Shown one piece after another: positions 162 to 61,848 of a stretch of 64,000 bases of DNA. Below the pieces are notes generated by a model. That model was not told where the DNA came from and made no database searches. It was given only the letters and a program-made list of their open reading frames with translations. The position numbers and the translations under genes were made by a program. The DNA comes from a virus (Duplodnaviria; Caudoviricetes): the IMG/VR virus record IMGVR_UViG_3300030330_003269, positions 1-64,000 of that record, one strand, 5' to 3'. Position 1 is the stretch's first letter. Every line of letters begins with the position of its first letter.

Positions 162-549
162 TAGAGATATGCTCATAGGTATTCTTCTTGGTCTTTCTAA
201 GATGGATTTTATTTTAGAAAGAAGCCCTGCATCAAAAATGGGATACATTGTTAGATTGAGTTTATCCCTAAGAGCAGATGAAAAGTTTCTTCTCGGTGTT
301 AAGAGAAGCCTATTACAACATGAAATTACCTCTTCCTACAAAGAAAAGGAAAGTAAAACACGACCAAGACCTATTCTTAAGATAGGTGGTATAAAGAATC
401 TATACAAAATAGTTGAAATGACACCGAATCTTCCCGATGCAAAAAACGAATGGACAGTATTTAGAGAAGTAGTGCATTTGGTTTCTCACGGAGAACACCG
501 TAATGCAGAAGGATTAGAAAGAATATTTGAATTAAAAGGAGTAATATGA
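154..549 (+). CDS. LAGLIDADG-fold endonuclease-like protein, probably catalytically degenerate
   Basis: N-terminal helix LIGILLGLS lacks the catalytic Asp. It is followed by GYIVRLSLSL and the C-terminal GEHRNAEGLERIFELK, typical of single-domain LAGLIDADG proteins. Confidence 0.55.
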   Translation: MYSRDMLIGILLGLSKMDFILERSPASKMGYIVRLSLSLRADEKFLLGVKRSLLQHEITSSYKEKESKTRPRPILKIGGIKNLYKIVEMTPNLPDAKNEWTVFREVVHLVSHGEHRNAEGLERIFELKGVI

Positions 550-1392
550 ATGGGATTAACCAATTACAATAAAGAAAGACCAATACTACTAACAGGAAAA
601 CACGGAACAGGCAAATCAACAAAAGCAAAGACTTTTGTGAATGACCCTATCGTGATGTATGCAAATGACATTGACTTTGATGTAGGTTCCTTTCCGATTG
701 AAAGGGGCATTATCATTGAAGATGTTCATTACAAACCTGATAAGGAAGCAATCCTTGATATTCTTCGCAGATATAGAGGCCAAATAGTTTTAACTTCTAT
801 TGACCAAAAATCTGTTCCAAAGAATATCATGGCGATGTGTAAAATTAAAAGAGCAGGAAGCAACAACTTTCTTCGTAATCAAGTGGAAACTATGGCTCCT
901 CATTCCGAGCCTCCTTTTTCTTACGAGAGAGACACTTATTCTCTTTGTTATGAATATTTGAAGGAAAGTAATCGTGATTTGATTAAAGATTTGCTTTTGT
1001 TTAACAAACCAGCCGATACGCAGATTTTATCTTGGTTGGCAGAAAATATGCACCCAAACAGGTTAATTTTTGTAGATGGAGTAGTCAAAAGGCGTTGGAG
1101 TCAGCGATATTTCTATGAGATGTTGGCGTATTCGCATCAAGGAAACATGGCAGGTCGGTTAAATATGCCGAGAAGGAGACAGTATTCTAAAATACCATTT
1201 CTTTCTCGCAAACTAGGTGTCAAAAACCCTGTTATACTGAATCAGTTATTAAAAGACCCAGAATTTAAGGAATGGGCGAAGAAAAAATTGACACACGCAG
1301 AGTGCCGACTTCTTAAAATCGGTGAAAAGAGAAAAAGAAAGAAAACAGACCCAATTGAGGTTCAACAACAAACATTGGAGGAATATATATGA
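550..1392 (+). CDS. Clamp loader large subunit-like AAA+ protein (RFC-L-like)
   Basis: Walker A GKHGTGKST, Walker B IIIEDV, C-terminal PIP-box QQTLEEYI; adjacent to the RFC small subunit. Confidence 0.65.
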   Translation: MGLTNYNKERPILLTGKHGTGKSTKAKTFVNDPIVMYANDIDFDVGSFPIERGIIIEDVHYKPDKEAILDILRRYRGQIVLTSIDQKSVPKNIMAMCKIKRAGSNNFLRNQVETMAPHSEPPFSYERDTYSLCYEYLKESNRDLIKDLLLFNKPADTQILSWLAENMHPNRLIFVDGVVKRRWSQRYFYEMLAYSHQGNMAGRLNMPRRRQYSKIPFLSRKLGVKNPVILNQLLKDPEFKEWAKKKLTHAECRLLKIGEKRKRKKTDPIEVQQQTLEEYI

Positions 1393-4954: not shown

Positions 4955-5715
4955 AATTTACAATAGATAGTGAAAAATTAGAAAAGGCATTAACCAAAGT
5001 TCAAATGAAAGGAAAAGGTATTGGTGGAAGTGGATTCGGGAATACGAGTCTTGGAAACTATGCCTCTCTGTATTTGGAAGGTAATGTTCTTTCTATTTGG
5101 AACGGCAATAATACTGTTGCCGTTAAATTAAATTTGACAGTTGAAGGTGAAGAAGATGGTAATGTCGTCATTGATACTACGAAAGTTGCTCCGTATCTTA
5201 AATCGTTCAAAGATGAAATAAATTTTGTAGTTGGAGATTTTATTCAATTAACTTCTGATACCAGAAAGGCATCTATTCCTTTGGTGGTTCGCCACCCACA
5301 AGGAGATTCTATTTCAAGAATGCGTGGTTTATTGAATCATGTAAGTTATGAGGTCATGCCTCGGATGCTTTTTACTTTTGGTAAATCAAAGTTTGAAGCG
5401 GGTATTAGTCTTATGCAGGTGCAATTACGAGATGCAATCAAAAATTGTGAATTAGTGAAAACAGGAGTATACAAATTTAATTACCACGAAGAGATTCTTT
5501 CAGTATCATCAAGAGATGGTGCGAGTAATAAATATGAAGAAACCATTGAACCTTTCTTTAACATAGGAGAATCAGCAACGGTTGAGTTTAGTGGGCCTTT
5601 GTATTCTTTGTTTGAAAAACAGCAGATGGTGAATATTTATTTGAAAGACGATTTCCCTATTCTTATGGTAGCAGAAGATAGAATGTTAGTGAAAGCACCG
5701 CAGATTAACGGGTGA
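4951..5715 (+). CDS. DNA sliding clamp (PCNA/beta-clamp fold)
   Basis: 254 aa with a two-domain clamp pattern (MKFTIDSEKLEKAL...; ...VNIYLKDDFPILM...MLVKAP); lies between RFC and PolB, whose products carry PIP boxes. Confidence 0.7.
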   Translation: MKFTIDSEKLEKALTKVQMKGKGIGGSGFGNTSLGNYASLYLEGNVLSIWNGNNTVAVKLNLTVEGEEDGNVVIDTTKVAPYLKSFKDEINFVVGDFIQLTSDTRKASIPLVVRHPQGDSISRMRGLLNHVSYEVMPRMLFTFGKSKFEAGISLMQVQLRDAIKNCELVKTGVYKFNYHEEILSVSSRDGASNKYEETIEPFFNIGESATVEFSGPLYSLFEKQQMVNIYLKDDFPILMVAEDRMLVKAPQING

Positions 5716-7388
5716 TAATAATGATTATTAATAAAATGAATGATGGAATGAGAATATACAAAGCATGGAGAGAGAACAATGAAAGAAAGTATGAGATGGT
5801 TAATTTCAGACCATATTTCTTTGTGGATGAAGAGGCTACTGAATTTCCTAGTTATTCGCCAAGTAAATATATCACTAGGGATTTTGAGTATCTTCGTGGC
5901 GATTGGACTAATCTTGAAGGGAAACCTTTGAAGAAAGTTTTTGTTGAAAACGCCAATGATATTCGTAATGCAAAGAAGATGTGGAATGAAACCTATGAAG
6001 CAGATGTTCCTTTGCATTTTCGGTATTGTGTTGATGAATTAGATGAAATGCCTGAATATAAACTGCGTAAGTGGTATTGGGATATGGAATGGCAACAAGG
6101 CGGAGAATATCACGACCAATTGACTACTATTGTTGTTTATGATAACTACGATGAGAAATACTATCAATGGGCTTGGTTTCCTAATCAAGACCAACATTGG
6201 GATTATACTTCACATGAAAGAAGTGATTGGGAAGGCCACTATTTTCCTTCTGAAAGAGAAATGATTGAACATTTTATGACTACAATGATTGTAAAAGACC
6301 CCGATATGTTAATTGCTTGGTTTGGTCATTTTGCTGATTTACCGAAATTATTTGAACGGGCGTGTGCCGTGGGTCTTGACCCTCGTATCATGTCTCCAAT
6401 TGGCTTCGTTAAGGGCGTTAAAAAGGTCAAGGATGGCTTCTCTTTCGCCTATGGTGAAAGTGGGTTCTCTCCCATTGAGCAACCCGTAGGGGGTCGCATA
6501 ACCCTCTCGTTAGACCTTGCTTTTGAAAGACAATGGAATGACAGTCAAAGAGGGACATTACCTTCTTTATCGCTTGATTACATCGGAGAGACTGTTCTTA
6601 ACAAAAAGAAATTGGTTTCTGAGAAGTTTCCAGACACTAACGAATTTTATCGCAAGGGTTGGTTAGAAGATACACAAACATACCTCAAATATGCTTTGAG
6701 AGATGTTGAATTGATGGTTGAAATTGATGAGAAAAATTTTTGTAGTGAAGCCATTCTTTCACTTCAAAGGCTATTGAAAGCACCATTTGATGCTTGTTTT
6801 TATGCTTCTCACATGGGTAGTATTTATTTTATGAGAAATGCTACTTGGAAAGCACCAACAGGAAAAAAGGTTGATGAACGCAAAGAATATGAAGGTGCGA
6901 TGATTTATGACCCATTAAGCGAAGAAACAAATGGATTACATTTGAATGTAGCCGCCTTTGATTTTGCTGGTCTATATCCTTCAATGATGATTGCTCGCAA
7001 TATCAGTTGGGAAACAAAATCAAAACAACCAACAGAATTTGCCGTGAACATTCTTACGCCAAGAGATTTTAGTGAAGTTAAATACCAAGATATGCTTTAC
7101 TATAAAACAGATAAACTTGGTCTTTTACCGAGAGCCGTTCTTGAATTGAAGGAGTTGCGAAATGAATATAAGCGACTTATGTATCAAGCACAAAAGGAGG
7201 ACAACGGCGAGTATGCAAAGTGGTATAACAATCAAATGGCTGTCAAGAGATTAATGGCTTCTTTTTATGGCATTGTTGCCTTTCAAGGATTTGGTTGGGC
7301 TGATGTTGATTTGGCTGCATCTATTACTGCAAGTGCAAGAGAAGCAATTAGACTTGCCGCATTTAAAGCAAAGGAGATGAAAATATGA
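5712..7388 (+). CDS. polB: Family B DNA polymerase, N-terminal part (3'-5' exonuclease plus motifs A and B)
   Basis: RPYFFV, YEADV, ExoI WDME, ExoIII YALRD, motif A FDFAGLYPS, motif B KRLMASFYG; ends before motif C. Confidence 0.93.
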   Translation: MIIMIINKMNDGMRIYKAWRENNERKYEMVNFRPYFFVDEEATEFPSYSPSKYITRDFEYLRGDWTNLEGKPLKKVFVENANDIRNAKKMWNETYEADVPLHFRYCVDELDEMPEYKLRKWYWDMEWQQGGEYHDQLTTIVVYDNYDEKYYQWAWFPNQDQHWDYTSHERSDWEGHYFPSEREMIEHFMTTMIVKDPDMLIAWFGHFADLPKLFERACAVGLDPRIMSPIGFVKGVKKVKDGFSFAYGESGFSPIEQPVGGRITLSLDLAFERQWNDSQRGTLPSLSLDYIGETVLNKKKLVSEKFPDTNEFYRKGWLEDTQTYLKYALRDVELMVEIDEKNFCSEAILSLQRLLKAPFDACFYASHMGSIYFMRNATWKAPTGKKVDERKEYEGAMIYDPLSEETNGLHLNVAAFDFAGLYPSMMIARNISWETKSKQPTEFAVNILTPRDFSEVKYQDMLYYKTDKLGLLPRAVLELKELRNEYKRLMYQAQKEDNGEYAKWYNNQMAVKRLMASFYGIVAFQGFGWADVDLAASITASAREAIRLAAFKAKEMKI

Positions 7389-38778: not shown

Positions 38779-40008
38779 TCAGTTAAATCCTCCAGCCATT
38801 TTATGAATCTCCGACCAATCCATCTCGGCCAATTCATCCATAGTTGGGAGTTTGATTTGGGCTTCTTCTTGAGCCTTAATAATTTGGTTCTTCTCAGCCG
38901 TCAAGGACTTGCGAAGAGAAGCAAATTCATTCTTAAGAGAAGCAATTTCGGAAGCCGCATCATATTGCGACTTTGCGAGGATGTTCTCTCTTTGGGAAGT
39001 TTCAGCCTTAAAGCGAGCCTCAAACTGCTTTTGAAGGTTGTCATAAGCCAACTTCTCCAATTGTTCTTGACGGAAAGCATCGTAAGCCTTCTCAATGTTA
39101 GCAACGCTCAAATCAAGCGTTTCTAACTCATCGTTGTTAAATGCCTTAACAACAGGAAGGTCGCTGGCTCTTGGCTTGCCGTTGTCAATAACGATTCTGT
39201 CGGCAGGTTCACCGATTTCAACGCCAGCACCATCAAGGGTAGAAAGAAGGGCTTTTGCCTCTTCATCACGATACATCTTTTCATCCTCATCCATGAGTTT
39301 TTCGGACATCATCTTTTCATCTTCGTCCTCCATTTTCTCATCCATGAGTTTTTCAGACATCATCTTTTCATCCTCATCTTCCATCTTTTCGTCCATTTCT
39401 TCCTTACGCAGAGTATTAACCTCTGCCATAAGTGCGTCCAGTTCTTCTAAAGCCTTTTCAATTTTGCTCATGTTTTTCACCTTTTTTTCTTGTTTAAGAA
39501 TATCAAACTTTGCTTCGGGGTTAATTCCTTTTTCACAGATAGTAACTTCATGTAATTCAAGTTTGCTAATTTCGTTAAATTCACCTAATTCTGGATTAGT
39601 CTTCTTTGTTTTTTGTAAAGCCTGTCCTCCAATACTAAATGACCTAAGCGAACCTTTTCTAATTCCTCTATTAATTTCCTTTGCTTTTTCAATATCATCT
39701 CTTAATTTGATTACCACAAAGAATCCAACATCATCAACTTCAGTTTTCCACAACTTTCCGTTTTTGTCTCGGTATGATTTTACTACTTCTCCAACTTGAA
39801 CATTTGAATGATTAGTCATTACATTTCTAAACTTGGGGTTTTCCATGTATTTTTCAACTGCTTCCTCCAATGCTTTGAGTGTGATTAAATCATTTTGCTT
39901 ATCAACGATTTCAATGCTTGCATATCCTCCAATCATTAAATCGTCGCTTTTTAGAATCCTGAAATCTTGAGTGTTGTTCATCATCACCGAGGAAGTCATT
40001 CTTCTCAA
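38779..40008 (-). CDS. Prohead protease (HK97/S78-type) fused to scaffold
   Basis: IGGYAS..VDKQND, catalytic H (MTNH), SFSIGG (Ser), LHEVTIC..GINP; acidic coiled-coil C-terminal half. Confidence 0.9.
   Translation of the reverse strand: MRRMTSSVMMNNTQDFRILKSDDLMIGGYASIEIVDKQNDLITLKALEEAVEKYMENPKFRNVMTNHSNVQVGEVVKSYRDKNGKLWKTEVDDVGFFVVIKLRDDIEKAKEINRGIRKGSLRSFSIGGQALQKTKKTNPELGEFNEISKLELHEVTICEKGINPEAKFDILKQEKKVKNMSKIEKALEELDALMAEVNTLRKEEMDEKMEDEDEKMMSEKLMDEKMEDEDEKMMSEKLMDEDEKMYRDEEAKALLSTLDGAGVEIGEPADRIVIDNGKPRASDLPVVKAFNNDELETLDLSVANIEKAYDAFRQEQLEKLAYDNLQKQFEARFKAETSQRENILAKSQYDAASEIASLKNEFASLRKSLTAEKNQIIKAQEEAQIKLPTMDELAEMDWSEIHKMAGGFN
39274..39396 (-). repeat. 51-bp tandem repeat in the scaffold (MDEKMEDEDEKMMSEKL x~2.4)
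   Basis: ctcatccatgagtttttc(g/a)gacatcatcttttcatc at 39286 and 39337. Confidence 0.85.
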
Positions 40009-43097: not shown

Positions 43098-43339
43098 TCC
43101 ATTCCTTTGACCATCTTATGAATGTCAGACCACTCCATGTCTCCGACATTCTTCCCTAATACGGAATCTCCACCAATAACAGATTCCATAACAGGTGTTG
43201 GACTATTTGATACAACAAAACCTGCTTTCATAAGCAGACTGTCTTTAGCATAAATTGTTTTTTCTAATGCTTCAACCTTTGCAGTTAAAGCCTTGATAAT
43301 TTCAAGCATATCTTCATTAATTGAATTTTCTTCACTCAT
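43094..43339 (-). CDS. Small scaffold-like protein with C-terminal WSDIHK motif
   Basis: Coiled coil, then DMEWSDIHKM, matching the scaffold C-terminus EMDWSEIHKM. Confidence 0.7.
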   Translation of the reverse strand: MSEENSINEDMLEIIKALTAKVEALEKTIYAKDSLLMKAGFVVSNSPTPVMESVIGGDSVLGKNVGDMEWSDIHKMVKGME

Positions 43340-43701
43340 TTCTTTTCCTCCTTTTTTCCAGTAGGATAAACCAAATCTCTCAATTGACGGTAGAGTAATT
43401 CATACTCCTTACGAAGTTTCGTAGCGGTGGCGACTATATCAATATTCCTTTCATCCATTGACTTCATTTTCTTATTTAACTTCTTATCTGATTTAATTAA
43501 TTCTAATTCTCTAAGAGTCTCAATAAGTTCACCTAATTTAGTGAAGTCTTGACCAAAAAATTCTGTTGGTTCTGCCGCTTGAAGAGTTTTCTTCAATCTT
43601 TTTCTGCCTTTGGCATCTAAAGAATCAAGAAGTTCTTTTGGCTCTTGTTTCTCAGCCTTTAAGATAAAGCCTTCTCCATCTCCATAGTAGTCCCATGTCA
43701 T
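43336..43701 (-). CDS. Hypothetical helical protein (head module)
   Basis: MTWDYYGDGEGFILKAE... Confidence 0.7.
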   Translation of the reverse strand: MTWDYYGDGEGFILKAEKQEPKELLDSLDAKGRKRLKKTLQAAEPTEFFGQDFTKLGELIETLRELELIKSDKKLNKKMKSMDERNIDIVATATKLRKEYELLYRQLRDLVYPTGKKEEKK

Positions 43702-45713
43702 TCTTCATCACCTTCTGGTTGTCTTTTACTGGGTTTAAACTTAAATCTACCCGAACCTTCTCTTGCTCTTTGTTCTTCTTTGGTTTCAAAGGCTCTCTCT
43801 GGTCTTGGTTTTGGCTTTTCACTACCTCTATCTAATTGAGCAAACTCTTCTCCTGCTTCATTAACAATTTCTTGTAATTCATTTCTTAAGGTGATATATT
43901 CATCTCTTAAATTAGTGAATTCTTCAACATCAGTAAAGCCTAATTCTTCATATCTATCATCAATGGAGAAGGCTTCTTCAATTTGAAGCCCATCTTTTAA
44001 AATTTCTTCGGTTGCTTCTTTGAGGCCCTTTTCATATCCATTAAAGTCTTTAAGTAATTTTTTGCTGAGTTTAGTTAATTTGTCTAGTTTATTATTTCCT
44101 TTAATAAGAATATTTATGGAACTCTTTCCTAATGGGATTAGTTCGCCCTCGCTATCAGTTAATCTTTTCATAAGACTTCCGTAATCTTGAACTAAGTCTT
44201 TAATTGACATTTCAGTAGTGGTTTCTCCATATCCTAATTGATTTAAATTTTTCATAACTTCATTAACCTTGGCCTCAGCAGTTTGAATTTCATCATCAAT
44301 ATCTCCTAAAGTATCTTGCGCTACTTTATCTACAAACTCTGCATATTTTTCAACATCTATATCTCCAGAAAAACGCCCCTCTTCAATACCAATACCAAAT
44401 GATAACTCAATAGTTTCTTTGAGTTGTCTTTTAAGTCTGCCTTGCATTATTTCTCTTCTAGGTCTTTGTAGGTTTTCTCTTTGGTTTTCGTCTGCAAGAC
44501 CTTTTCTGTTTGTAAGCATAACTTTTATTGCTTCTTTGATGGTTTTAACTTTTCTTTTCATCAAAGCACCAGAATCTTCTTTCATATCACTTAAGTCTTC
44601 TATTCTATCTTCAAGGTTTTGTTGGACATCTCTAAATGAACGAATAAATTTTTTCATCTCATCAATATTTTTCTTGGCTCTTTTGAATCCTAATTCTGTT
44701 TTTGGGTCTTTTCCTTTGCTATAACCCATAAGAGCATCCGAGACTTTTTTTTGTTGTTTGCGGTCAATAAAGCGAGCGGCATTTCTATTGAATTTAACTC
44801 TAAACATTTCATTTAATGCCTTTGATAAAGGAACGGGTTCCCCGCCCTCAACAGGATATTCTCTAATATATGATAATAATTCATCTTGTAGTGCAGGAAT
44901 ATCAATAATTTTATTTTTATCTTCAGAATATACATATTCTCCTTTGTCCTTTACCATAGGAACAAATTGTTGTCTTAGAGTTTGCGTTAGTCTTTTTTCT
45001 CCTGTATCAGTAGTTCCTTCATACAGTTTAAAGTTTCTAAGAACATCCGATAAAGACTTAACTAAAGCCTTCTTATCGGTTTCTAATTCACCAACAAGAG
45101 AAATTAGTTCATTACCTACTTTAATTCCTCTTTCTTTGTTAGGCCCAACAAATCTTTCAAACTCTCTCGTTCTAATTTGTTCTCCGCTTTTCATATCTAA
45201 TTTGTCGGTAATTTTCTTCAATGCCGCAGAAAATCCTTGAATTTTTTCAATTTTCTTTTTGGCTTCTTTATTTTTCTTAAAGGTTTCAGCAAGGGATAAT
45301 TTTTTCTGTTTTTCTTTTGCTGCGTCCTTTTCGCCTCGTAATTCTGCTTGGCGTTTATCTTCCTGTTCGGCTAATTCAGAAACACTACTACCTCTATCTC
45401 TTCCAGAAACGGCTTCTTCAACATCTTCCAGTTGTGCGCCTTCATCGGTTCGCTGTTCTTCTGTTCCTCTTGCTCTAACATCTTTTTCGGCTTCAAGTCT
45501 TTCTTTTCTTTGTTCTTCGGTTTCTTCTTCTTCGGCCTTTTGAATATATCTTCTATATTGAACAATGTTTGAAGAGTTCATATTTTTAACAAGAGACATT
45601 TTAATCAAAGTAGCAGAAGAACCTTGATTCACTAACTCTTTTGTTTCTTCATCTAATTCAACGCGCTTTAGCAATCCTGCCAAAGACTTATCCTTAGATA
45701 AATCAAAAATCAT
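43698..45713 (-). CDS. Large charged coiled-coil protein (putative internal virion protein)
   Basis: 671 aa, E/K-rich, between portal and protease. Confidence 0.65.
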   Translation of the reverse strand: MIFDLSKDKSLAGLLKRVELDEETKELVNQGSSATLIKMSLVKNMNSSNIVQYRRYIQKAEEEETEEQRKERLEAEKDVRARGTEEQRTDEGAQLEDVEEAVSGRDRGSSVSELAEQEDKRQAELRGEKDAAKEKQKKLSLAETFKKNKEAKKKIEKIQGFSAALKKITDKLDMKSGEQIRTREFERFVGPNKERGIKVGNELISLVGELETDKKALVKSLSDVLRNFKLYEGTTDTGEKRLTQTLRQQFVPMVKDKGEYVYSEDKNKIIDIPALQDELLSYIREYPVEGGEPVPLSKALNEMFRVKFNRNAARFIDRKQQKKVSDALMGYSKGKDPKTELGFKRAKKNIDEMKKFIRSFRDVQQNLEDRIEDLSDMKEDSGALMKRKVKTIKEAIKVMLTNRKGLADENQRENLQRPRREIMQGRLKRQLKETIELSFGIGIEEGRFSGDIDVEKYAEFVDKVAQDTLGDIDDEIQTAEAKVNEVMKNLNQLGYGETTTEMSIKDLVQDYGSLMKRLTDSEGELIPLGKSSINILIKGNNKLDKLTKLSKKLLKDFNGYEKGLKEATEEILKDGLQIEEAFSIDDRYEELGFTDVEEFTNLRDEYITLRNELQEIVNEAGEEFAQLDRGSEKPKPRPERAFETKEEQRAREGSGRFKFKPSKRQPEGDEE

Positions 45714-47637: not shown

Positions 47638-47871
47638 TCAAGGGCTTCCGCTATCTTCAATATCATACCTTGCATTACTTGAACGAAGCATTTCTTCTAA
47701 GATGCCTCTTACTGCTTGAACTCTCCTTTCAGGAGAAGCCTTCCCAATGTCTAAATAATACTTAACCATTCTTTTATTAATATCAGCAAGATTACTAAAT
47801 TTAACATATTTTGTTCTATCTCTTGGCAAAACATCGGTGAGGATGCCTTTAGTAAAATCTTTCCATTTCAT
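47638..47871 (-). CDS. Hypothetical protein (variant W tag)
   Basis: Starts MKWKDFTK. Confidence 0.55.
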   Translation of the reverse strand: MKWKDFTKGILTDVLPRDRTKYVKFSNLADINKRMVKYYLDIGKASPERRVQAVRGILEEMLRSSNARYDIEDSGSP

Positions 47872-48209
47872 TTGCTCATCCTCTCCGTTTTTCTTTTGCT
47901 GGATTTTTTTCTAGCCAATGCTACCTTATGTGCAGCATTTAATCTTCTTTTTGTTTCGGGGTCTTTTGCTCTTTTAGCCGCTACTCTTGCTCTTTGTTCA
48001 ACTAAATTAATAATTTGAGATTGTCTCTTATGTGGCTTTGATTTGAATGATGAACTTGAAAATGTTTCTCTTACATCTTTTGCTGTTTTAAACTTGACAG
48101 GAACAGTATCTTTTGGATTTTCATCTGTATATAATCTTCTTGCTGAACCTTTGGGCTTCTTTCCCGTTCCTTTTTTTGGGTCTTTCTTTAAAACATTAAT
48201 CCAATTCAA
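47868..48209 (-). CDS. WxxVLK-tagged basic protein
   Basis: MNWINVLK, then DPKKGTGKKPKGSARRLYTDENP. Confidence 0.75.
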   Translation of the reverse strand: MNWINVLKKDPKKGTGKKPKGSARRLYTDENPKDTVPVKFKTAKDVRETFSSSSFKSKPHKRQSQIINLVEQRARVAAKRAKDPETKRRLNAAHKVALARKKSSKRKTERMSK

Positions 48210-48481
48210 GGTGAACCCTTCCTTCGTTTATATGTTTTACAAGCAGCACAAGTTGGCCTACATCTTCTTTTTGTTCCTTTAGAAGCATCTTTTCTTCCAC
48301 ATGGTTTAGGGCCGCCTTTTTGATTACAGGTTCCGCAAGCAATCCATCCTCCTTGCGTTTTCCCTCCTTTAGATTCTTTTCCCCCTCTTCTTGAGAACCA
48401 ACCGTGAAGTCCTTCACTTTTTTCTCTTTTAAAATTGTCTCCTTTCTTTTGGAGGATTTCTTCCCAAGACACAATAATCAC
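48206..48481 (-). CDS. Tagged basic Cys-rich protein
   Basis: SWEEILQK, then EGLHGWF...GGWIAC...KPCGR...C. Confidence 0.7.
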   Translation of the reverse strand: MIIVSWEEILQKKGDNFKREKSEGLHGWFSRRGGKESKGGKTQGGWIACGTCNQKGGPKPCGRKDASKGTKRRCRPTCAACKTYKRRKGSP

Positions 48482-48834
48482 TTCTTTTTAGATTTGTTTC
48501 CCCAATTCTTTGCGCCTACTTTACGACAACGGACTAAAGCACCCGAAGCATAAGCAGAAGGCCATTTCTTATAACGACTACGAACTTTGTGATAACAAGC
48601 GTCTTTTTCTTTCTTTAATTCTTCAAACCAAAGGCCTTTACGAATTTCTGCCTTTCCTGTGGCTAGTTTTTTCTTGCCGCCCGCTTTTCTTGCTCTATTC
48701 ATTTCTTTCGCCGCCTTCTTTGCCTTTTCTTTTGTTGAGAAACCACCATGTTTTTTACCATCAAAAAAGAAATGATATTCATTACCTGTTGAATAGACCT
48801 TCACTTCCTTCTCAATTTTCATTAACAATTCCAC
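48478..48834 (-). CDS. Two-domain basic protein with internal tag
   Basis: Internal LWFEELK precedes DACYHKVRSRYKKWPSAYASGALVRCRK. Confidence 0.7.
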   Translation of the reverse strand: MELLMKIEKEVKVYSTGNEYHFFFDGKKHGGFSTKEKAKKAAKEMNRARKAGGKKKLATGKAEIRKGLWFEELKKEKDACYHKVRSRYKKWPSAYASGALVRCRKVGAKNWGNKSKKK

Positions 48835-49112
48835 CTTCTTCTTGCGGCCTTTGCTTTCTCGCTGTAAGTTCCATCTGCTCTCTTAAATCCTCTTGACCTT
48901 GCACAAAAAGATTTACGCCTCTTTGCTGCTTTACCGCCAGGTTTTAATTTACTTGGTTTTTTAGTTACTGGGCGCTTTAAATTAGCACCAGTTTCTCTTT
49001 TGAACTTAGCACGACCTTTCGCACTTAGTCCACCTGTTCTTGCGTGAATTTTTTTGTTATATCCTTTAAAAGGTTTTTTCTTCTTTTTAAGAATTTCTTG
49101 CCATTCATTCAT
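48822..49112 (-). CDS. WxxILK-tagged basic protein
   Basis: MNEWQEILK, then GGLSAKGRAKF...RRKSFCAR...RRRWNC. Confidence 0.75.
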   Translation of the reverse strand: MNEWQEILKKKKKPFKGYNKKIHARTGGLSAKGRAKFKRETGANLKRPVTKKPSKLKPGGKAAKRRKSFCARSRGFKRADGTYSEKAKAARRRWNC

Positions 49113-49116
49113 AATA

Positions 49117-49428
49117 TCACTCTCTAATTCTTTCATAAAACCCAGTATTTTTATTTCTTTTATGATAACCTAATTTATTAATTTTTTGACCAATAGTTTC
49201 TTTATTCACCCTTGCTTTAGCGTGTTTTGTTGCGTAATTAGTTCTAGTCATATGTCCTCCCTCAACCAAGAGAGAAGCATATTCTCTAACTACTTCTTCA
49301 GCAATTAGAGGAAGTTTGAATGTTTTTCTGTCCTTTGTAACATTTTCAACCGCTTGAGTAAATACAGGGTGATTTATTTTTTTTGCTGCGCCACGGGTGG
49401 CTTTAAGAATATTTTTCCACTCAATCAT
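49117..49428 (-). CDS. WxxILK-tagged protein, paralog of the GNAT protein's C-terminal domain
   Basis: MIEWKNILK; AV..VT...EY..L...KLGY pattern shared with 53183..53530. Confidence 0.7.
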   Translation of the reverse strand: MIEWKNILKATRGAAKKINHPVFTQAVENVTKDRKTFKLPLIAEEVVREYASLLVEGGHMTRTNYATKHAKARVNKETIGQKINKLGYHKRNKNTGFYERIRE

Positions 49429-50011
49429 ATTTATCACCTATCATATAGCCTAATTTTTTTCCTGCTTGAATATCACTTGGATAATGACTTCCCATTTGCA
49501 TTCTTGATAAAGAAATTCTATCTGCCATTTCTTTGAGTTCTTTCTTTTTGTTTGGATATTTTTTCCCTAATACTTTTTCTAAACCATGAGCCAACATTGA
49601 GTGTCCACTTGGAAATGCAGGGGTATCGTCTGTTTTTGTTTTAGTTGTTTTAATTTTATCAGATATTTCATGTGGTCTTGGTCTTTGATATTTCATTTTT
49701 AAAGAGATAGCATAATAATTAATATCTTTCATAAAATCTTCGTAATCTTTTCTATCAGCATCAACTATTTTGAGCATTTCTATTTCAGGTTTTAAATCAG
49801 AATCTTTCATTTGTTTTGGTGTTAGTTGTTTTTTTCTCATTACTGCTAAAATTTTAGGAATCTCAGTTTCTTCTTTTGGATAACTCATTTTTGGAATATC
49901 TATTTTTATTTTTGGGCTTCTCTCTAAGATTTTACTTTTTTTTCTTGAAAGAGTTCCACCCCAAGTTCTTTTTTTAAGAACAGAAAACCAACTTAATATG
50001 GTTTTGTCCAT
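49421..50011 (-). CDS. PAP2/vanadium-haloperoxidase-superfamily phosphatase, tagged
   Basis: KMKYQRPRP, PSGH and SRMQMGSHYPSD motifs; N-terminal SWFSVLK. Confidence 0.85.
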   Translation of the reverse strand: MDKTILSWFSVLKKRTWGGTLSRKKSKILERSPKIKIDIPKMSYPKEETEIPKILAVMRKKQLTPKQMKDSDLKPEIEMLKIVDADRKDYEDFMKDINYYAISLKMKYQRPRPHEISDKIKTTKTKTDDTPAFPSGHSMLAHGLEKVLGKKYPNKKKELKEMADRISLSRMQMGSHYPSDIQAGKKLGYMIGDKYD

Positions 50012-53182: not shown

Positions 53183-54022
53183 TCACTCCTCTTTGCCCAT
53201 AGTCCAATAAGTAGTTCTTAAAATAGGAGAGGTGCTAGACAGACCATAAAGACTGACATTACCTTTAACACCCTGCTTAGCCTTTGGATAATAACCATAT
53301 TTTCTCATAAGTTTAGTATAAGGCATAAATGTCATATGATTATCTTTTATTCTTCTTAATTGTGCCTTTTCTGAATGATTTCCATATGCGATAATAAGTT
53401 CTCGGTATTCTTTTGCAATTCTTTTCATTAGGTCTTTATTTTCAATACCCTTTCCGTCTAAATCTTCCACAATTTTTCTTACTGCTGCTTTAATAAATTG
53501 AAAATTATATTTTTTTTTAAGAATAGAAAACCAACTGGCCTGTTTATGAATCATCCACTTTTGAACTTGGTCTGCATAAGTTAATCCTTCTAAATCTTGT
53601 TGAGAATCTTCAGGAAGTTCACTAATATTCATATCACCGAACCCTCTATTTCTATATGTGTTAGCAATTTTATCATTCGCAATATTCACATATAAAGTAT
53701 TAGAACCCTTTTCTGCAATAATCTTATCAACTAATATTCCCGAAAGACCCCGACCTCTAAACTCATCTCTTACATGAATACCTGCGCCAAGCAACTTACC
53801 CTTGTGTTTTGAAAATCCAATCACACCAACTGGTTTATCTTCATAATAAGCAACAAACATTGTTGCAGGAGCAGTAGCCCAAGAAGAATCACGGGACATT
53901 GAACGATAGCGCATTCTTCTTTTTTGATAATCAAAATAGCCATCGTCTTGAAAAGCCTTTACTGCATCATCCTCAGACATTTCTCTAAAGGAAATATCAG
54001 CAGCAGAAAACTTTGAAACCAT
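53183..54022 (-). CDS. GNAT acetyltransferase fused, via an internal WxxILK tag, to a second domain
   Basis: HVRDEFRGRGLS acetyl-CoA motif, YRNRGF; internal ASWFSILK. Confidence 0.8.
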   Translation of the reverse strand: MVSKFSAADISFREMSEDDAVKAFQDDGYFDYQKRRMRYRSMSRDSSWATAPATMFVAYYEDKPVGVIGFSKHKGKLLGAGIHVRDEFRGRGLSGILVDKIIAEKGSNTLYVNIANDKIANTYRNRGFGDMNISELPEDSQQDLEGLTYADQVQKWMIHKQASWFSILKKKYNFQFIKAAVRKIVEDLDGKGIENKDLMKRIAKEYRELIIAYGNHSEKAQLRRIKDNHMTFMPYTKLMRKYGYYPKAKQGVKGNVSLYGLSSTSPILRTTYWTMGKEE

Positions 54023-56608: not shown

Positions 56609-58606
56609 TCAGTCCTCCAGTAGTCCTTCTTCTTTAAATGCGTTAAGTGCTTTGGTTGTATTTTCTACATTTTTACCTGTCATGTATTTTTCATAATTTT
56701 CAGCAATATCTTTCATTTGGAATTCAAATGCCTTAATAATCGCATCTCGTATTCTTTTCAGATAATCAGGAATCTTTTTATCCAAGTCTTGAAGCCGTGA
56801 AGCGACCTCTTCGCTTTGCGGGTTGGCCTTCACGGACTTAAATACTTCCTTCGGGGTCATGTCATTTAATGCGTGGTCAGCCATTCTTGAAAGAAAAGAG
56901 ATAAAATTCTTTGGGTTTAACTGTTCAAGAGGACTTGCACCAACATCTTTAGAATTAATTAGTTTATCCATTTCATCTGCCTTTTGTTTTACAAATTCAG
57001 GGAAAGAAGAGCCTGTAATTAAATCTCTTACCTTGGGAATATTACTAAATTCTAAAACATCGTCAGGTATTTTTTCAATAATAGTATTTGGGGTTAAATT
57101 AAGTTTTCTTATTCCATCATCAAATGTTATTTGAACATAGAAAGCAAGGTCGCCCATCTCATCTTCTTCAACATTTTCTCCTGAATAATCAATATATTGA
57201 TACTCTAAGTCGTCAGCATCATATATCTTTTCAATAGTAGCCTTCAATTGTTTAAATTCAGAAACAGTAAAATAATCCTTCAAAAAGGTTAATTGTTGTC
57301 TTCTTGAGATATCTTTTGTATTACTAACTATATTTTTAATGTTTCTAGAGAGTCGCATTTGATTTCTTATTTCTTTTCTAACTGCCGTTCTTGCTGCTTT
57401 AGTATCTGTTCTGCTTTTATTTTCAACTAATTCATTAATAAAAGGCCTGACATTTACATTAAACTTACGAGAATTATCCTGTCCTAGAAAAATAGATTCT
57501 GTAATATCATCAATTACTTCTAATTCAGCCTCTCCATCAGTCTGTGTTTCATTAATACGAAATTCATTAAAGAAATTAGAAAACCAATCTTCTTTAAACT
57601 CAGTTTTAAGAATTAAAGAAGCCATAGGATTCAAGGCAACCGACTTAGCACCACTACCGCTTTTTGTTAAAAATAGCATATCTGGGACAGTTTCATCCTC
57701 TATATTTGGCCCTAAAGCACTTCTATCAAACTCTTTTGGAAGAAATTTGTCCTTTTTTCCAGCAAATTTGCCAGAATTAAGAACATCTATGAATTTAAAT
57801 ACATCGTTTGCATCAAATGTCGCTTTGGCTTTAAATTTTTTGTCAGAAATGAGGAAATTATCAGGAATTTTTGAAGATTTGCCTCCTTCAACAAAATTTA
57901 ACCCAACTGATTTCCTTTTTCCAAGAATAGGGGCAAAATGTTCGCTATAAAACTGTGAAACTCCAGAATCTCCACGAATTTTCTCTTGTAATTGAGTAAA
58001 ATTCTCAAAATCTGTTAAAATAATGTCTTCACTTAGTTCTCCACCGATGAGTTCAGCAAAAATTCTTAGTAAATTTTTGTTTTTTGGTGGATTTTTGAAG
58101 GTAATGTAGTTTTTTGCACCTAATGTGTTGCTTACAAACAAATATTTTTGTTGAAGTCTTGGCTTATTAGACCAAAATGCTAATTTTGTGTTATATTTTG
58201 GAGTATTTTTATTGAATTCAGAAAATTCTTGCTTGGCTTCATCGGGTTTTTTATTATTTATCAAATCTCTTATCATGTTTAGTTGAGAAATTGCTTCATT
58301 TTCTGATAAATACTTCTTATCTGGTTCAATTTCTGAAATAAGTTCTTTTAATTTATTAAATCTTTCAGTAAATTGTTCCAATGTTGCTTCGCCTGTATCA
58401 TATTCTTCATAATATTTTTCAGGAGCGTCCTTTAGAGCAGAAAGCGTCCCTCTCAAACTCTTTACGAATTTTTTCGAAGTCTTGATTCTATCTAAAATTG
58501 TATTGAAATTACCTTCATCCATTAAAGCAGGGAAGAGAAAGTAAGATGGCATATTATCTTCGGGGATAAACGGGAGAGGTTTCTTAATAATTGAAAACCA
58601 ACTCAT
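56609..58606 (-). CDS. Large WxxIIK-tagged hypothetical protein
   Basis: True start probably ATG 58606 (MSWFSIIKK), inside the 21-bp repeat that carries the RBS. Confidence 0.75.
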   Translation of the reverse strand: MSWFSIIKKPLPFIPEDNMPSYFLFPALMDEGNFNTILDRIKTSKKFVKSLRGTLSALKDAPEKYYEEYDTGEATLEQFTERFNKLKELISEIEPDKKYLSENEAISQLNMIRDLINNKKPDEAKQEFSEFNKNTPKYNTKLAFWSNKPRLQQKYLFVSNTLGAKNYITFKNPPKNKNLLRIFAELIGGELSEDIILTDFENFTQLQEKIRGDSGVSQFYSEHFAPILGKRKSVGLNFVEGGKSSKIPDNFLISDKKFKAKATFDANDVFKFIDVLNSGKFAGKKDKFLPKEFDRSALGPNIEDETVPDMLFLTKSGSGAKSVALNPMASLILKTEFKEDWFSNFFNEFRINETQTDGEAELEVIDDITESIFLGQDNSRKFNVNVRPFINELVENKSRTDTKAARTAVRKEIRNQMRLSRNIKNIVSNTKDISRRQQLTFLKDYFTVSEFKQLKATIEKIYDADDLEYQYIDYSGENVEEDEMGDLAFYVQITFDDGIRKLNLTPNTIIEKIPDDVLEFSNIPKVRDLITGSSFPEFVKQKADEMDKLINSKDVGASPLEQLNPKNFISFLSRMADHALNDMTPKEVFKSVKANPQSEEVASRLQDLDKKIPDYLKRIRDAIIKAFEFQMKDIAENYEKYMTGKNVENTTKALNAFKEEGLLED

Positions 58607-58617
58607 TGTAATCTCTC

Positions 58618-58896
58618 CTATTCCCACACCGAATCTGCCTTTCTAAGAGTCTTTCTAGGCTTAAATCTCAAGACATTGTTTCCTCTATCCAACTTACGCC
58701 CATACCCTGTTTGCTCTGCTAAAGACTCATCGGTGAAATATAGAAGTCTTCCTCCGAACAAGCGAATTAAGTAGTGGGTCTTTCCTTTCTCATTCGCTAG
58801 ATTTTGAACCATTTCTTTTGCTTCGCCAATAGCGACTCCATCCCTAATCGGGGTCATTTTGCTAGTATCAATTTTCAGTATATCTTCCCAACTCAT
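58618..58896 (-). CDS. Tagged cassette gene
   Basis: MSWEDILK. Confidence 0.75.
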   Translation of the reverse strand: MSWEDILKIDTSKMTPIRDGVAIGEAKEMVQNLANEKGKTHYLIRLFGGRLLYFTDESLAEQTGYGRKLDRGNNVLRFKPRKTLRKADSVWE

Positions 58897-58907
58897 TGTA
58901 ATCTCTC

Positions 58908-59237
58908 CTACACATTAAAAGGATTAAAGGGTTCTTTTTCTTCTTCTTCTTTTACAGGCTTATCCAAAAATTGACCGCCTGTGTATTTTGCTTCCTTTCT
59001 GGCTTTTTCTTCTCTTAGCCTTTTTTCTTCATTGAGTTTTTTAGTTTCTGCTGCTTTTTTATTAGCCTGTTGTCGTCTTTCAGGAGAAAGAGGTTTTCTT
59101 GGCTTATCAGCATATATTCTTCCAGGTTTTTTTGTTCTTAGAGCCTGTCTTTTTGTCGGGGATGCGCCATATTCTTTAAAATCAAAAGCATCACCTCTTC
59201 CTGCATATCCTCTTTTAATAATGTCCTGCCACTTCAT
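58908..59237 (-). CDS. Tagged cassette gene (basic)
   Basis: MKWQDIIK. Confidence 0.75.
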   Translation of the reverse strand: MKWQDIIKRGYAGRGDAFDFKEYGASPTKRQALRTKKPGRIYADKPRKPLSPERRQQANKKAAETKKLNEEKRLREEKARKEAKYTGGQFLDKPVKEEEEKEPFNPFNV

Positions 59238-59509
59238 TGTAATCTTTCCTGTATTCTAAAATCTTCTTGTCTGCTTAAACTGTTCAATAATTCAGTCATA
59301 TCAAAATCGGGGTTATCTAAATTCTCTTGAGTTAATTGATTAAGAGCATCATCAATTGTTTCTTCCAAAAGTTCTTTTTGTCTTTGGTATTCGGCCTCAA
59401 TAAACTCTTCTTGCATCTCTCTAAAAATAGCAATAGAATTGCTAATATCAGGATATTTATTAAAATCAATTTGATTTGGGTCTAGTTTCAAAATTTCTTC
59501 CCAACTCAT
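59234..59509 (-). CDS. Tagged cassette gene (acidic)
   Basis: MSWEEILK; ends QERLQ, encoded by the repeat. Confidence 0.75.
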   Translation of the reverse strand: MSWEEILKLDPNQIDFNKYPDISNSIAIFREMQEEFIEAEYQRQKELLEETIDDALNQLTQENLDNPDFDMTELLNSLSRQEDFRIQERLQ

Positions 59510-59526
59510 TGTAATCTCTCCTGCAT

Positions 59527-59706
59527 TTAAGCCTTAGTATTAGCCTCATCCAAGTATAACTCTAATACTTGGTCGGGAGCATTTTTATCATCTGTGCGAT
59601 ATACTCCTTTTTTTCCATCTTCTAAATATTCAACAACATAATATTCTATTCCATCATGTTTTATTTCTTTAGGGAAGTCTCCCTTTAGTATGCTTTTCCA
59701 ACTCAT
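59527..59706 (-). CDS. Tagged cassette gene, 59 aa (not in ORF track)
   Basis: MSWKSILKGDFPKEIKHDGIEYYVVEYLEDGKKGVYRTDDKNAPDQVLELYLDEANTKA. Confidence 0.75.
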   Translation of the reverse strand: MSWKSILKGDFPKEIKHDGIEYYVVEYLEDGKKGVYRTDDKNAPDQVLELYLDEANTKA

Positions 59707-60366
59707 TGTAATCTCTCCTGCATCTTCTGTTTAATATCCAGCCAAATCTCAGGATTGTTCTGTGCTAACACTTCTTGAACAATTTGCATTTGTGCGACAA
59801 TAATCGTGTCCTGTCTCTTGTGAATCAATTTACCCTTGAACTCCATAAGATACTTTAAAGATTCTCTAATCTCTTGCTAACTTGGTAAGAGCGTCAATCA
59901 TCTTAGGGTCAAGGTCATTCCCCAAATCGTTGAAGACTTGCTCTAAACGCATATCTAACTTTTGCACATTGTTTGAAAGCAAATCAACTTCATTTACTTC
60001 CTTTTTCGCCAGCATCATGGCGGCGGATTCCTGCACGATTGGCGTTAAGTGGTGTTTGATGTGCCTACGCACCTGCTCTTTTGTGGTGTTCAGCGCAGAA
60101 GAAACAGCCTCAATGGTGATATTACCTTCTTTAATCGCAAGTTCGTAGTGCTTCCTCATGGGGTCTGTGCATAGAACACAACGAGGATTTGACGACATTT
60201 CATAATTCCCCATGTGGTTTCTTTGATGTTGTGCGGCAGTTCCGCTTCTCCATCCATGTTGTGCATCCATATCATCACAAGTCATTGAACCCATCTCAAG
60301 AAGGGATTCCAACTCTTCTCGGTTGTCTGCTTGACAAAGACCACAACGCTTGCGATTAACTGTCAT
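59703..60366 (-). CDS. Tandem Zn-HTH protein with coiled coil (possible terminase small subunit), frameshifted near 59870
   Basis: Two CxxC...HxxxH units; the ORF stops at 59866 but continues in another frame as IRESLKYLMEFKGKL...KMQERLQ to TGA at 59703. Confidence 0.6.
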
Positions 60367-60701
60367 TATGGAGAACCCCTATAAAAAATGTCATGTCCTC
60401 TTGATAAGTTCACAAGCCCACTACGATACATCATAAATTCATCAGTTCCGATACTTTCTTCCATCAAATCTAATGTGCTTTGCATAGCAAGCCAAACAGT
60501 AGGCTCTTTTGCGATAATCTTGCTCTTATTTGCCATAATTTTTTCTTTTATGTCTTTAAATATTTTGGTATGTCTTTTAATCTCTTTACCAGTATTTACC
60601 ATATTTCTATTAAGGCTGGCTTCTTCCATATCTTCGGGAGCATATTTTTCTCCTAATCTACGGGCTTCATCCATATCAATCTTTAAAACCTCTTTCCACA
60701 T
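60366..60701 (-). CDS. Tagged hypothetical protein
   Basis: MWKEVLK. Confidence 0.75.
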   Translation of the reverse strand: MWKEVLKIDMDEARRLGEKYAPEDMEEASLNRNMVNTGKEIKRHTKIFKDIKEKIMANKSKIIAKEPTVWLAMQSTLDLMEESIGTDEFMMYRSGLVNLSRGHDIFYRGSP

Positions 60702-60702
60702 A

Positions 60703-61848
60703 TTATTTTCTCCATAAAACCTGTTGCCACATTTTAGAAATAACCTTTTGATTAGGATTCAACTTAAAGTCATCATGTTGATATGTATCTGGATATTTTT
60801 CTTTGGCTGTCTTTCTGTAATCAAAACCACCCCTTGTATCATTTTGCCACGCACGAAAACCATTCGGTGCTTTGTTAGTTCCTTTTCTTTTTAAGGCTCT
60901 ATCAACTAATTCAATAAAGACTTCTTTACCTACTGCTTTTGGAAATGAAACTATAGCAATATCACCAGCAATAGAATTATCTTCGTCTGCTGGCCCAAGT
61001 TTAGCCAGTTCTCTTGCGATGTTCTGGTCTTTATTGGTTAGTCTAAACTTTTGATTTTTAAAATCTGTTCTAACCTTATTAGTTAATAATCTACCACCTG
61101 CGTTCCAAAATGCATTATTACGAACAACTTTATTAAAGTAACTTTGAATTGAACTGAGGTCTTCTAATTCTTCAGCATCAATACCTGATAAATTTTCAAT
61201 GCCCAAGTCTTCAATTTCTGGCTTATCAATATCTTCTAAAATATGGAGAAGTCCTCTTGGTCTTGCGAACTTTGTTGAAGATTCTGAGAAAAGAGCCTGA
61301 TGTGGCGGATTTTTTCCAGCAAACCATTCATCGTCTGCCTTTGGCACTTTGTTCTTCTTTGCATAACTTTCGGTGGCATAATGTCCTTGGACTTTTCTTT
61401 CCTTTCTTTTCTGCTCACCTTCACCAACAGGTTTATCTGTGAATAAAATGAACGCAGGGTCAAATGCTGGAGACTTTTCACCAATAACATGACCAGTTCC
61501 TTTCATGCCCTTTAATGTCTTAGCAAGGGCTTTAATTGTTTTAATGTTTCCAGTAGTCAATAATTCATTATCAACAAAACCTTCAACTGCAGTCAAAATA
61601 TCAGCAACACCTTGACCTTCAACATCTTTATTTCTGCTTTTACTTCTTGCCTTTTTAATGTGTTGTTTAAGAAAAGCATATAATGATGGAACTCTTTGGA
61701 CTCTCATATCACCTGCGCTGACAGAAAGACAATTATCTCTCCATTCATTAAACTCTTCAACAAACCTTTCATTATCAAAGGTTTGGTCAAGAGAGTTTCC
61801 TTTATGTTTTTTTGGAGCCTTCTTTTTATCTTCAGGCATATTCTTCAT
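60703..61848 (-). CDS. Hypothetical protein ending in tag-like MWQQVLW
   Basis: 381-aa ORF. Confidence 0.7.
   Translation of the reverse strand: MKNMPEDKKKAPKKHKGNSLDQTFDNERFVEEFNEWRDNCLSVSAGDMRVQRVPSLYAFLKQHIKKARSKSRNKDVEGQGVADILTAVEGFVDNELLTTGNIKTIKALAKTLKGMKGTGHVIGEKSPAFDPAFILFTDKPVGEGEQKRKERKVQGHYATESYAKKNKVPKADDEWFAGKNPPHQALFSESSTKFARPRGLLHILEDIDKPEIEDLGIENLSGIDAEELEDLSSIQSYFNKVVRNNAFWNAGGRLLTNKVRTDFKNQKFRLTNKDQNIARELAKLGPADEDNSIAGDIAIVSFPKAVGKEVFIELVDRALKRKGTNKAPNGFRAWQNDTRGGFDYRKTAKEKYPDTYQHDDFKLNPNQKVISKMWQQVLWRK

Follow-up and report, generated by a model that had tools for sequence, protein, structure and literature searches.

A start-codon repeat and a variable array of tagged small genes in the late operon of a group-B-like magrovirus

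Background

How can a row of unrelated small genes come to have every start codon inside a copy of one and the same short sequence, and what would proteins that start in this way be used for? Both questions are raised by a locus at positions 56,609 to 60,366 of a viral DNA stretch of 64,000 nucleotides (IMG/VR record IMGVR_UViG_3300030330_003269, positions 1 to 64,000; the whole stretch is called the window), in which four small genes are delimited by five copies of a 21-bp repeat. An initial annotation of the window had read these genes as an integron-like array of cassettes. We compared the locus with related loci from IMG/VR. The best explanation that we find is that it is a hyperplastic accessory-gene array, lying within a long late operon of a group-B-like magrovirus, whose cassettes would be gained, lost and swapped through homologous recombination at the junction repeats; we put the probability of this explanation, taken as a whole, at about 0.72. 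The proteins share an eight-residue N-terminal tag, for which a role in capsid loading is considered much more tentatively.

Magroviruses are tailed viruses of Marine Group II archaea and are among the most abundant archaeal viruses in surface oceans. The majority of their genes are ORFans.

Results

Five junctions enclose four small genes

The 21-mer GGAGAGATTACAATGAGTTGG is present on the minus strand at 58598, 58888, 59501 and 59698 as exact copies and at 59229 with three mismatches, the spacings being 290, 341, 272 and 197 bp. Shuffled sequences gave a chance expectation of 0.01 matches, and five copies were obtained in 0 of 100 shuffles. A single minus-strand open reading frame (ORF) lies between each pair of successive copies (59, 91, 109 and 92 amino acids (aa) in order of transcription); the ATG of each ORF sits inside a repeat copy, and the fifth copy starts a 665-aa gene. 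Transcription, which follows the minus strand, would first meet a Zn-ribbon/helix-turn-helix gene (Zn-HTH; 60366..59866 plus 59846..59703), then the four small ORFs and finally the 665-aa ORF:

59866..60366, minus strand: N-terminal 166-aa ORF of Zn-HTH, the conserved left anchor; homologues in nearly all related loci, with an invariant CxxC...CxxC
59703..59846, minus strand: C-terminal 47 aa of Zn-HTH, ending MQERLQ-stop; a separate ORF through a 2-nt (GA) deletion
59698..59718, minus strand: junction repeat J1, in which the last codons and stop of Zn-HTH overlap the Shine-Dalgarno (SD) sequence and start of cassette 1 (ATGA)
59527..59706, minus strand: cassette 1, 59 aa, MSWKSILK; no homologue in the fetched loci
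59501..59521, minus strand: junction repeat J2, preceded by a relic ATGCAG of the Zn-HTH 3' end (mini-ORF 59506-59526)
59234..59509, minus strand: cassette 2, 91 aa, acidic, MSWEEILK, ending QERLQ; a 53% identical homologue is at position 3 of the L014 array
59229..59249, minus strand: junction repeat J3, the variant with three mismatches (ATGAAGTGG, encoding MKW); the MKW start is common to the L070 homologue of cassette 3
58908..59237, minus strand: cassette 3, 109 aa, basic, MKWQDIIK; an 85% identical homologue is cassette 2 of 2 in L070
58888..58908, minus strand: junction repeat J4, from the junction alignment
58618..58896, minus strand: cassette 4, 92 aa, MSWEDILK; an 81% identical homologue is cassette 2 in L035 and L071
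58598..58618, minus strand: junction repeat J5, preceding the conserved right anchor gene; from 58619 the sequence is again homologous to L001
56609..58606, minus strand: right anchor, a tagged 665-aa protein of unassigned function, MSWFSIIK; next come the genes for an 859-aa protein, GNAT and TerL

When the five junctions are aligned, a core of 22-23 bp is identical (AGGAGAGATTACAATGAGTTGG), flanked by partial identity that reaches about -17 (ATGC) on one side and +24 on the other. The core is composed of AGGAGAGATTACA followed by ATG AGT TGG, and the consensus of the encoded tag is M-[STN]-W-[KEQ]-[DN]-I-L-K, in which residue 2 is small and position 8 is K in 97% and R in 1% of cases. Intergenic distances in the array are either -4 (the ATGA overlap) or 11-17 nt. 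There is thus no space for promoters or terminators in the cassettes, which points to expression via translational coupling. The four cassettes and their neighbours had no significant match in PHROGs or Pfam.

The five copies with their spacings, the single small gene between them, the relic mini-ORF after the stop of the 59-aa gene (ATG CAG GAG AGA TTA CAA TGA, that is, MQERLQ-stop) and the QERLQ end of the 91-aa gene are all as the initial annotation had described them. Its description of the repeat as the junction of the Zn-HTH 3' end with an ATG-AGT-TGG start stands as well, except that Zn-HTH is not one ORF here. A 2-nt deletion in a GA run near 59860 (59855-59866) splits it into its 166-aa and 47-aa ORFs, whereas in 45 of 45 full-length relatives both parts are in one frame, as a single ORF of 217-221 aa. 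The deletion may be a real allele or a consensus error. The second ORF of the window starts at the conserved Met of ..LKYLMEFKG...

Closely related loci carry different cassettes

Two sets of related loci (given L-numbers below) were fetched from IMG/VR. An exact search with the 21-mer gave 63 stretches, on contigs of 12-185 kb. A second set of 80 further loci was selected with a Zn-HTH profile, out of 222 matching stretches, which removes the ascertainment bias of a repeat-based search. Nearly all loci of the first set have a Zn-HTH ending MQERLQ-stop at the first repeat copy, and the run of small genes that follows gives way to a gene of 510-840 aa and then to one of about 800-930 aa. In the Zn-HTH-selected set, 210 of 288 chain genes carry the strict tag, and 156 have no more than two mismatches to the 21-mer.

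Seventy-three distinct complete arrays were obtained from both sets, and the slot between Zn-HTH and the 510-840-aa gene holds from 0 to 10 cassettes in them. It is empty in four (L084, L087, L098 and L121), and one, two, three, four, five, six, seven and ten cassettes are found in 7, 20, 9, 14, 11, 6, 1 and 1 arrays, respectively. The 200 cassettes of the first set fall into 132 body families, including 87 singletons, and the common families occupy differing positions beside differing neighbours.

Such differences are also seen between arrays with nearly the same anchor. L011 and L058 have 100% identical Zn-HTH proteins and zero cassettes in common; for L013 and L015, at 99% identity, 1 of 10 cassettes is shared. 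Over all pairs with Zn-HTH at least 95% identical, the Jaccard index of cassette content ranges from 0 to 0.2, with a mean of 0.08. The closest relative of the window, L001, has flanks that are 89% identical at the nucleotide level and 91% at the amino acid level, and three other cassettes replace the four of the window. Duplicates within an array are rare (family F39 twice in L044, family F5 twice in L031). The initial annotation had foreseen a variable number and order of cassettes in relatives and some empty sites; number (0-10), order and content do vary, and four sites are empty.

Homology ends at the junctions

Where arrays differ, the breakpoints could be placed by alignment. The flanks of the window align with L001 (89%) as far as 59703 on one side and from 58619 on the other; both limits lie in the outermost repeat copies. 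The nucleotide alignment of cassette 3 with its L070 homologue spans from one repeat to the next, and the MKW variant moves with the cassette; for cassette 4 and its homologue in L035 and L071 (81%), similarity begins at the repeat. The simplest case is that of L086 and L087, whose flanks are 91-93% identical and whose difference is one cassette of 131 aa: the empty site of L087 is composed of the left half of the left junction of L086 and the right half of its right junction, and the crossover falls inside about 27-30 bp of shared bases. Further single-cassette indels or replacements separate L113 from L114, L099 from L100, L075 from L076, L107 from L108, and L103, L104 and L106 from one another. 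Globally, 80 distinct internal ends of homology blocks were collected from 64 arrays, and 89% of them lie within 30 nt of a cassette start codon, compared to 17% for random positions. Junctions share about 25-45 bp of DNA, and crossover points are not fixed inside the repeat: they range from positions 5' of the SD as far as the tag codons.

Behind inserted cassettes, the 3' end of Zn-HTH is found regenerated: relics of it, ATGCAGGAG, are present at J2 of the window and at the right junction of L086. Moreover, 19 of the 200 cassettes end in ..[ED][REK]LQ.

Signs of a dedicated system were looked for. PF00589, the integrase family, had no match in the complete 96.8-kb genome but matched every control genome, and the listed Pfam matches of the 61 window ORFs include neither a recombinase nor a transposase family. 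Within 58400-59900 no inverted repeats or attC-like structures are present at the junctions, which had no Rfam match either. The most economical mechanism is therefore general homologous recombination over the 25-45 bp that junctions share.

We propose that a unit of the array consists of an SD with a fixed spacer (AGGAGARATTACA), the ATG, the first codons of the eight-residue tag and an unrelated ORFan body. Having no promoters of their own, cassettes would be expressed by translational coupling from the upstream Zn-HTH gene. The junctions would act as crossover sites for general homologous recombination among co-infecting or replicating genomes: unequal crossover at two junctions would delete or duplicate a cassette, a double crossover in the junctions on either side of a cassette would replace it, and every recombinant would again be in frame, with an SD and a tag. 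No site-specific recombinase would be involved; magroviruses encode a RadA-like ATPase, SSB and several nucleases (PMC5434244), which would be available for the purpose.

Several elements of the initial annotation are recovered in this scheme. The homology-driven accordion that it described agrees with the repeat-to-repeat indel of L086 and L087 and with the position of breakpoints at junctions, and its statement that no integrase is visible extends to the complete genome. It had also supposed that the four cassettes were inserted serially at one junction. Insertion does regenerate the Zn-HTH 3' end, but indels and replacements take place at every junction and a serial order is not shown. Likewise, each insertion was thought to gain an SD and the start of the tag, which is correct only for what lies 5' of the crossover: the tag codons come with the cassette, as MKW does with cassette 3.

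The repeat is conserved as DNA, the tag as protein

Conservation at the DNA level, assessed over 188 junctions, covers the 13 bases that precede the ATG as well as the second codon. Serine at this codon is encoded by AGT in 143 of 145 cases and never by TCN, the exceptions being single-base neighbours of AGT. Positions 6-8 of the tag are conserved at the protein level: Ile is encoded by ATA, ATT and ATC, position 7 by TTG, TTA, CTA, CTT, CTC and ATT, and Lys by AAA and AAG.

The 13-mer is limited to the array, where 77 of 152 junctions of the Zn-HTH-selected set have it. Just upstream of Zn-HTH, 352 tagged genes have a generic GGTGA-type SD and varied second codons, without the 13-mer, so that neither the tag nor expression depends on the repeat. 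The uniformity of the repeat is best explained by its role, and its renewal, as a crossover site. Its GATTACA spacer may have a translational role.

Alternatives to recombination at the repeat

Some observations weigh against the explanation by homologous recombination. The recombination events are reconstructed from sequence comparison, and selection for intact ORFs would also cluster the surviving breakpoints at gene boundaries. The first 63 loci were selected through the repeat itself, a bias for which the 80 Zn-HTH-selected loci correct. Finally, junctions are only slightly more similar within than between arrays (8.78 versus 9.18 mismatches in a permutation test, confounded by relatedness).

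This weak homogenisation would be expected if the junction were conserved as an optimal region for translation initiation or coupling, or as the operator of a translational regulator, with arrays rearranged by illegitimate recombination and selection retaining breaks at gene boundaries. The junction does hold an SD, spacer and start between tightly coupled genes, and the same 13-mer is kept in Zn-HTH lineages down to about 40% identity. Yet the 352 upstream tagged genes are provided with GGTGA-type SDs in its place, and breakpoints are more than merely intergenic, as they fall inside the shared 25-45 bp and, in L086/L087, inside an overlap of 27-30 bp. We consider this alternative to be improbable.

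The order of cassettes in this contig could also be a chimera, assembled from co-occurring strains joined at the repeat. The record is a metagenome assembly, its four-cassette order was not retrieved from any independent contig (in a search that may not have covered near-identical records), and the frameshift in Zn-HTH hints at an imperfect consensus. However, the shared core of 22-45 bp is expected to be shorter than a sequencing read, matching or near-matching arrays recur in independent samples (L065/L066; L047/L050/L053/L129/L132), and cassettes 2, 3 and 4 are found as repeat-bounded units in other samples, which makes a chimera very unlikely. It would in any case concern this contig alone, as variable arrays were seen in many independent samples.

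As for an integron-like, site-specific system with an att-like site in the repeat and a recombinase encoded elsewhere or by the host, the analogy drawn in the initial annotation holds for the layout (promoterless, co-oriented, unrelated and variable cassettes with a recurring site between them), but IntI and attC are absent and the crossover position is not fixed; we give this system very little credence. Equally hard to believe is that one tagged gene was duplicated locally and the bodies diverged, the repeat being an ancestral remnant: the common tag and upstream DNA and the rare within-array duplicates would fit, but the many families differ in length, charge and composition, the same cassettes are found at 81-85% identity elsewhere beside other neighbours, tagged families move between three genome regions, and identical flanks enclose unrelated arrays.

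The tag is found well beyond the array

In the genome to which the window belongs, 19 ORFs begin with M-x(0,1)-W-x-x-[ILVM]-[ILVM]-[KR], whereas shuffles gave 0.36. The late strand carries all 19, with 16 of them within 56.6-68.3 kb. The strict motif is found 21 times in the first 15 residues of a protein and 3 times internally. From the fetched loci, 824 unique tagged ORFs were grouped into 362 families, nearly all of them ORFans; among 140 family representatives of at least 110 aa, only one PAP2 protein and one pentapeptide-repeat protein have a convincing Pfam domain. Pentapeptide repeats also make up the fold of Qnr and MfpA, which mimic DNA. PAP2 is matched by one window ORF out of the 61 scanned (6e-12). 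Tagged families move among the array, the block upstream of it and downstream positions. The tag is selected at the protein level and is present genome-wide; it is not specific to the array.

Other occurrences of tag-like sequences were recorded. At 47868-50011 of the window (minus strand), between the portal gene and a 524-aa gene, four consecutive small genes have the tag at the called start or a few residues inside it; at least the one at 47868-48209 encodes a very Lys/Arg-rich protein, reminiscent of DNA-associated internal proteins. The GNAT acetyltransferase (53183-54022, minus strand) has an internal tag, ..QASWFSILKKK.., at residue 164, between the GNAT domain and a domain of about 110 aa. 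In a sister clade of magroviruses, a large protein of 685-794 aa, encoded between the portal and a small scaffold-like protein, starts with the tag (L242 14183-16567; L254 12025-14346; L258 6419-8476). The corresponding proteins of the window (43698-45713) and of L226 are untagged, so tags have been gained and lost on conserved proteins of the head module.

A tag-like motif at the C-terminus of the scaffold

Two head-module proteins outside the array end in a similar motif:

38797..38823, minus strand: C-terminal motif M-D-W-S-E-I-H-K-M of the protease-scaffold protein, tag-like
43112..43138, minus strand: C-terminal motif M-E-W-S-D-I-H-K-M of an 81-aa head-module protein; co-varies with the scaffold motif across clades

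The protease-scaffold ends ..E-M-D-W-S-E-I-H-K-M-A-G-G-F-N and the 81-aa protein ..D-M-E-W-S-D-I-H-K-M; among close relatives, all 34 sequence variants have M-x-W-x-x-I-H-K-M. When 1.84 billion representatives were searched with HMMER, protease-scaffold relatives down to 36% identity were seen to keep [ML]-[SD]-W-x-[ED]-[IVL]-[HNE] near the C-terminus. In three distant clades, the C-terminus of the small protein changes alongside that of the scaffold, to W-x-x-[IV]-[DN]-E-L-V, W-E-E-[IV]-H-x-[ML]-A and W-[KR]-x-A-E. This variation in step between clades suggests that the two proteins share a docking peptide, probably for the capsid interior. Pairs of small protein (about 80-110 aa) and scaffold were located at 6227-6466 and 10001-11269 in L226, 3332-3664 and 10001-11422 in L227, and 5613-5939 and 10001-11383 in L229.

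The N-terminal tag has the core M-S-W-x-[DE]-I in common with the scaffold C-terminus. It is conceivable that the tag is a protein-level address label, which would dock proteins inside the procapsid by imitating the C-terminal docking motif of the scaffold; the array would then provide an exchangeable set of packaged proteins, which might be delivered into the host. A capsid-targeting role is favoured because of this shared core, the tagged head protein of the sister clade and the location of tagged genes, and we regard loading of tagged proteins into the capsid as possible, though short of probable. A slightly more speculative extension is that MSWxxILK is a magrovirus cargo-loading code, and the array a population-level library of injected effectors, shuffled by recombination, with more than 360 families in the sampled loci.

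Against a function in the capsid, the tag is still I-L-K in a clade in which the scaffold has I-D-E-L, so that there is no co-variation at +4/+5, and the HVTV-1 scaffold is without the motif. One tagged family is a PAP2 membrane phosphatase, and about 60% of cassettes are acidic. Moreover, the candidate I-L-K cleavage site at the N-terminus of the protease persists in relatives with as little as 36% identity, and could simply belong to the S78 fold. That the tag is an exact mimic of the scaffold motif is not supported, given the I-L-K retained beside an I-D-E-L scaffold. The short motif [IL][IL]K is seen again at about residue 30 of the major capsid protein (MCP), where the protease domain ends, and close to the C-terminus of the scaffold. 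A cleavage site between FRILK and SD was also considered, but x-I-L-K-[SA] is kept before the catalytic domain in many distant S78 proteases, and is equally likely to be a structural strand.

The tag might instead dock to another partner, such as a host hub protein, a viral chaperonin or the GNAT protein, or govern N-terminal processing or stability. The strictness of Lys at position 8 and the small residue 2 would fit such a role, as would the missing co-variation with the scaffold, the tagged membrane protein and the internal tag of a GNAT protein encoded in the same operon. However, tagged genes are confined to the late, head-proximal strand, where they are also found between portal and TerL, a large head-module protein is tagged in the sister clade, and the core is shared with a widely conserved scaffold C-terminus; a role away from the capsid seems to us rather unlikely.

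Anchor genes and genome context

For Zn-HTH, only weak helix-turn-helix matches, at about residues 70-107, came out of a relaxed search of Pfam and a profile comparison with PDB sequences. Its AlphaFold2 model (pLDDT 66) had no PDB fold match at E<=0.001, and ESM Atlas returned clusters of viral hypothetical proteins, a minority with HTH_20 or GerE. That it is the terminase small subunit, TerS, was a guess from gene position, and is unconfirmed in view of the weak matches. ESM Atlas gave nothing usable for the 665-aa right anchor. Upstream of Zn-HTH, a 381-aa protein (60703-61848, minus strand) has a tag-like C-terminus, ..SKMWQQVLWRK-stop, and the gene directly after it (60366-60701, minus strand) starts MWKEVLK; together they may be the relic of a fused or decayed tagged start.

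The window is from a group-B-like magrovirus, whose complete genome record in IMG/VR is of 96,765 bp, is classed as linear and has a CheckV completeness of 100%. The last 77 nt of the record are a copy of window positions 499-575 and not of its first bases, so that its two ends do not simply overlap. The window encodes a split family-B DNA polymerase (PolB), an RFC-like clamp loader, ERCC4 and PD-(D/E)XK nucleases, an ATP-dependent ligase within the head module, an S78 prohead protease fused to a scaffold-like tail, an HK97-type MCP, portal, TerL and tail tube. This content fits the published description of magroviruses, in which the split polymerase is the hallmark of group B (PMC5434244). 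The best named relatives of the MCP are those of the haloarchaeal siphoviruses HVTV-1 and HCTV-1, at about 24% identity; these haloviral MCPs were the only match in the GenBank phage collection, where the array region had no DNA match and Zn-HTH no protein match.

Discussion

The locus is a hot spot that shows where and how magroviruses turn over accessory genes, with a start-site repeat that keeps all recombinants expressible. For uncultured viruses, the 13-mer with ATG AGT TGG, or the peptide tag, offers a sequence handle on the accessory proteome. Should the tag be a packaging signal, no earlier cargo-loading code would be known from an archaeal virus: whatever ORF recombines into a tagged slot would enter the head and reach the next host with it, and the tagged families would be a large candidate set of host-takeover or anti-defence proteins for Marine Group II archaea.

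Comparison with known systems

The layout recalls integron arrays, in which promoterless, co-oriented and unrelated cassettes are likewise separated by a recurring site and vary in number and order between relatives. Unlike integrons, the array has no IntI, attC hairpins or attI/Pc; its recurring site is a translation start, and exchange would be driven by homology.

The tag invites two comparisons. In T4, the first 10 residues of the capsid targeting sequence (CTS) suffice to load unrelated proteins into the prohead (PMC3012670, PMC9026906). As with the T4 internal proteins, a short conserved N-terminal peptide is here carried by unrelated small proteins, whose gene set is polymorphic and is expressed with head genes. 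The differences are that targeting of the CTS to the scaffolding core, and its removal by gp21 at a Glu site, have been shown experimentally, whereas the tag ends in Lys and is known from genes alone; it is also found on many more families, 362 of them in the loci sampled, and is similar to the C-terminal motif of the scaffold itself. Encapsulin cargo-loading peptides (PMC8346489, PMC8802124) are short terminal peptides too, on diverse proteins, for a shell of HK97 fold; but encapsulins are cellular nanocompartments, their peptides are mostly C-terminal and peptide binding is structurally solved, while the link to the shell is made here by similarity of motifs.

The mechanism is closest in class to the modular shuffling of T4-type phages, in which recombination between repeated Promoter early Stem-Loop (PeSL) motifs, each a promoter with a terminator, leads to insertions, deletions and replacements of ORFans in hyperplastic regions (PMC2839356; also PMC4122927); PeSL-like motifs have been reported in the haloarchaeal virus HGTV-1 (PMC3950731). 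In both cases, a short conserved expression signal is repeated between non-essential ORFans and bounds their indels and replacements, homologous recombination between copies is proposed, products stay expressible and no dedicated recombinase is needed. The PeSL element, however, is about 100 bp long, with an early promoter and a terminator stem-loop that give each gene its own transcription unit, whereas the magrovirus element has about 25-45 bp, no hairpin, and lies within one operon. Composed of SD, spacer, start and tag codons, it gives translational autonomy and reaches into the coding sequence. Mini-circles have been shown for PeSL; the array is known from comparison of sequences.

Shuffling at repeated expression signals was thus already known. 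In the published descriptions of magroviruses that we searched, neither this array with its repeat nor the tag is mentioned, and nothing is said of N-terminal motifs, hypervariable regions or cassettes. The locus extends the modular shuffling of 'regulatory cassettes' from the promoters and terminators of T4-like phages to translational signals, and what is new is a translational repeat coupled to a peptide tag, in an archaeal virus.

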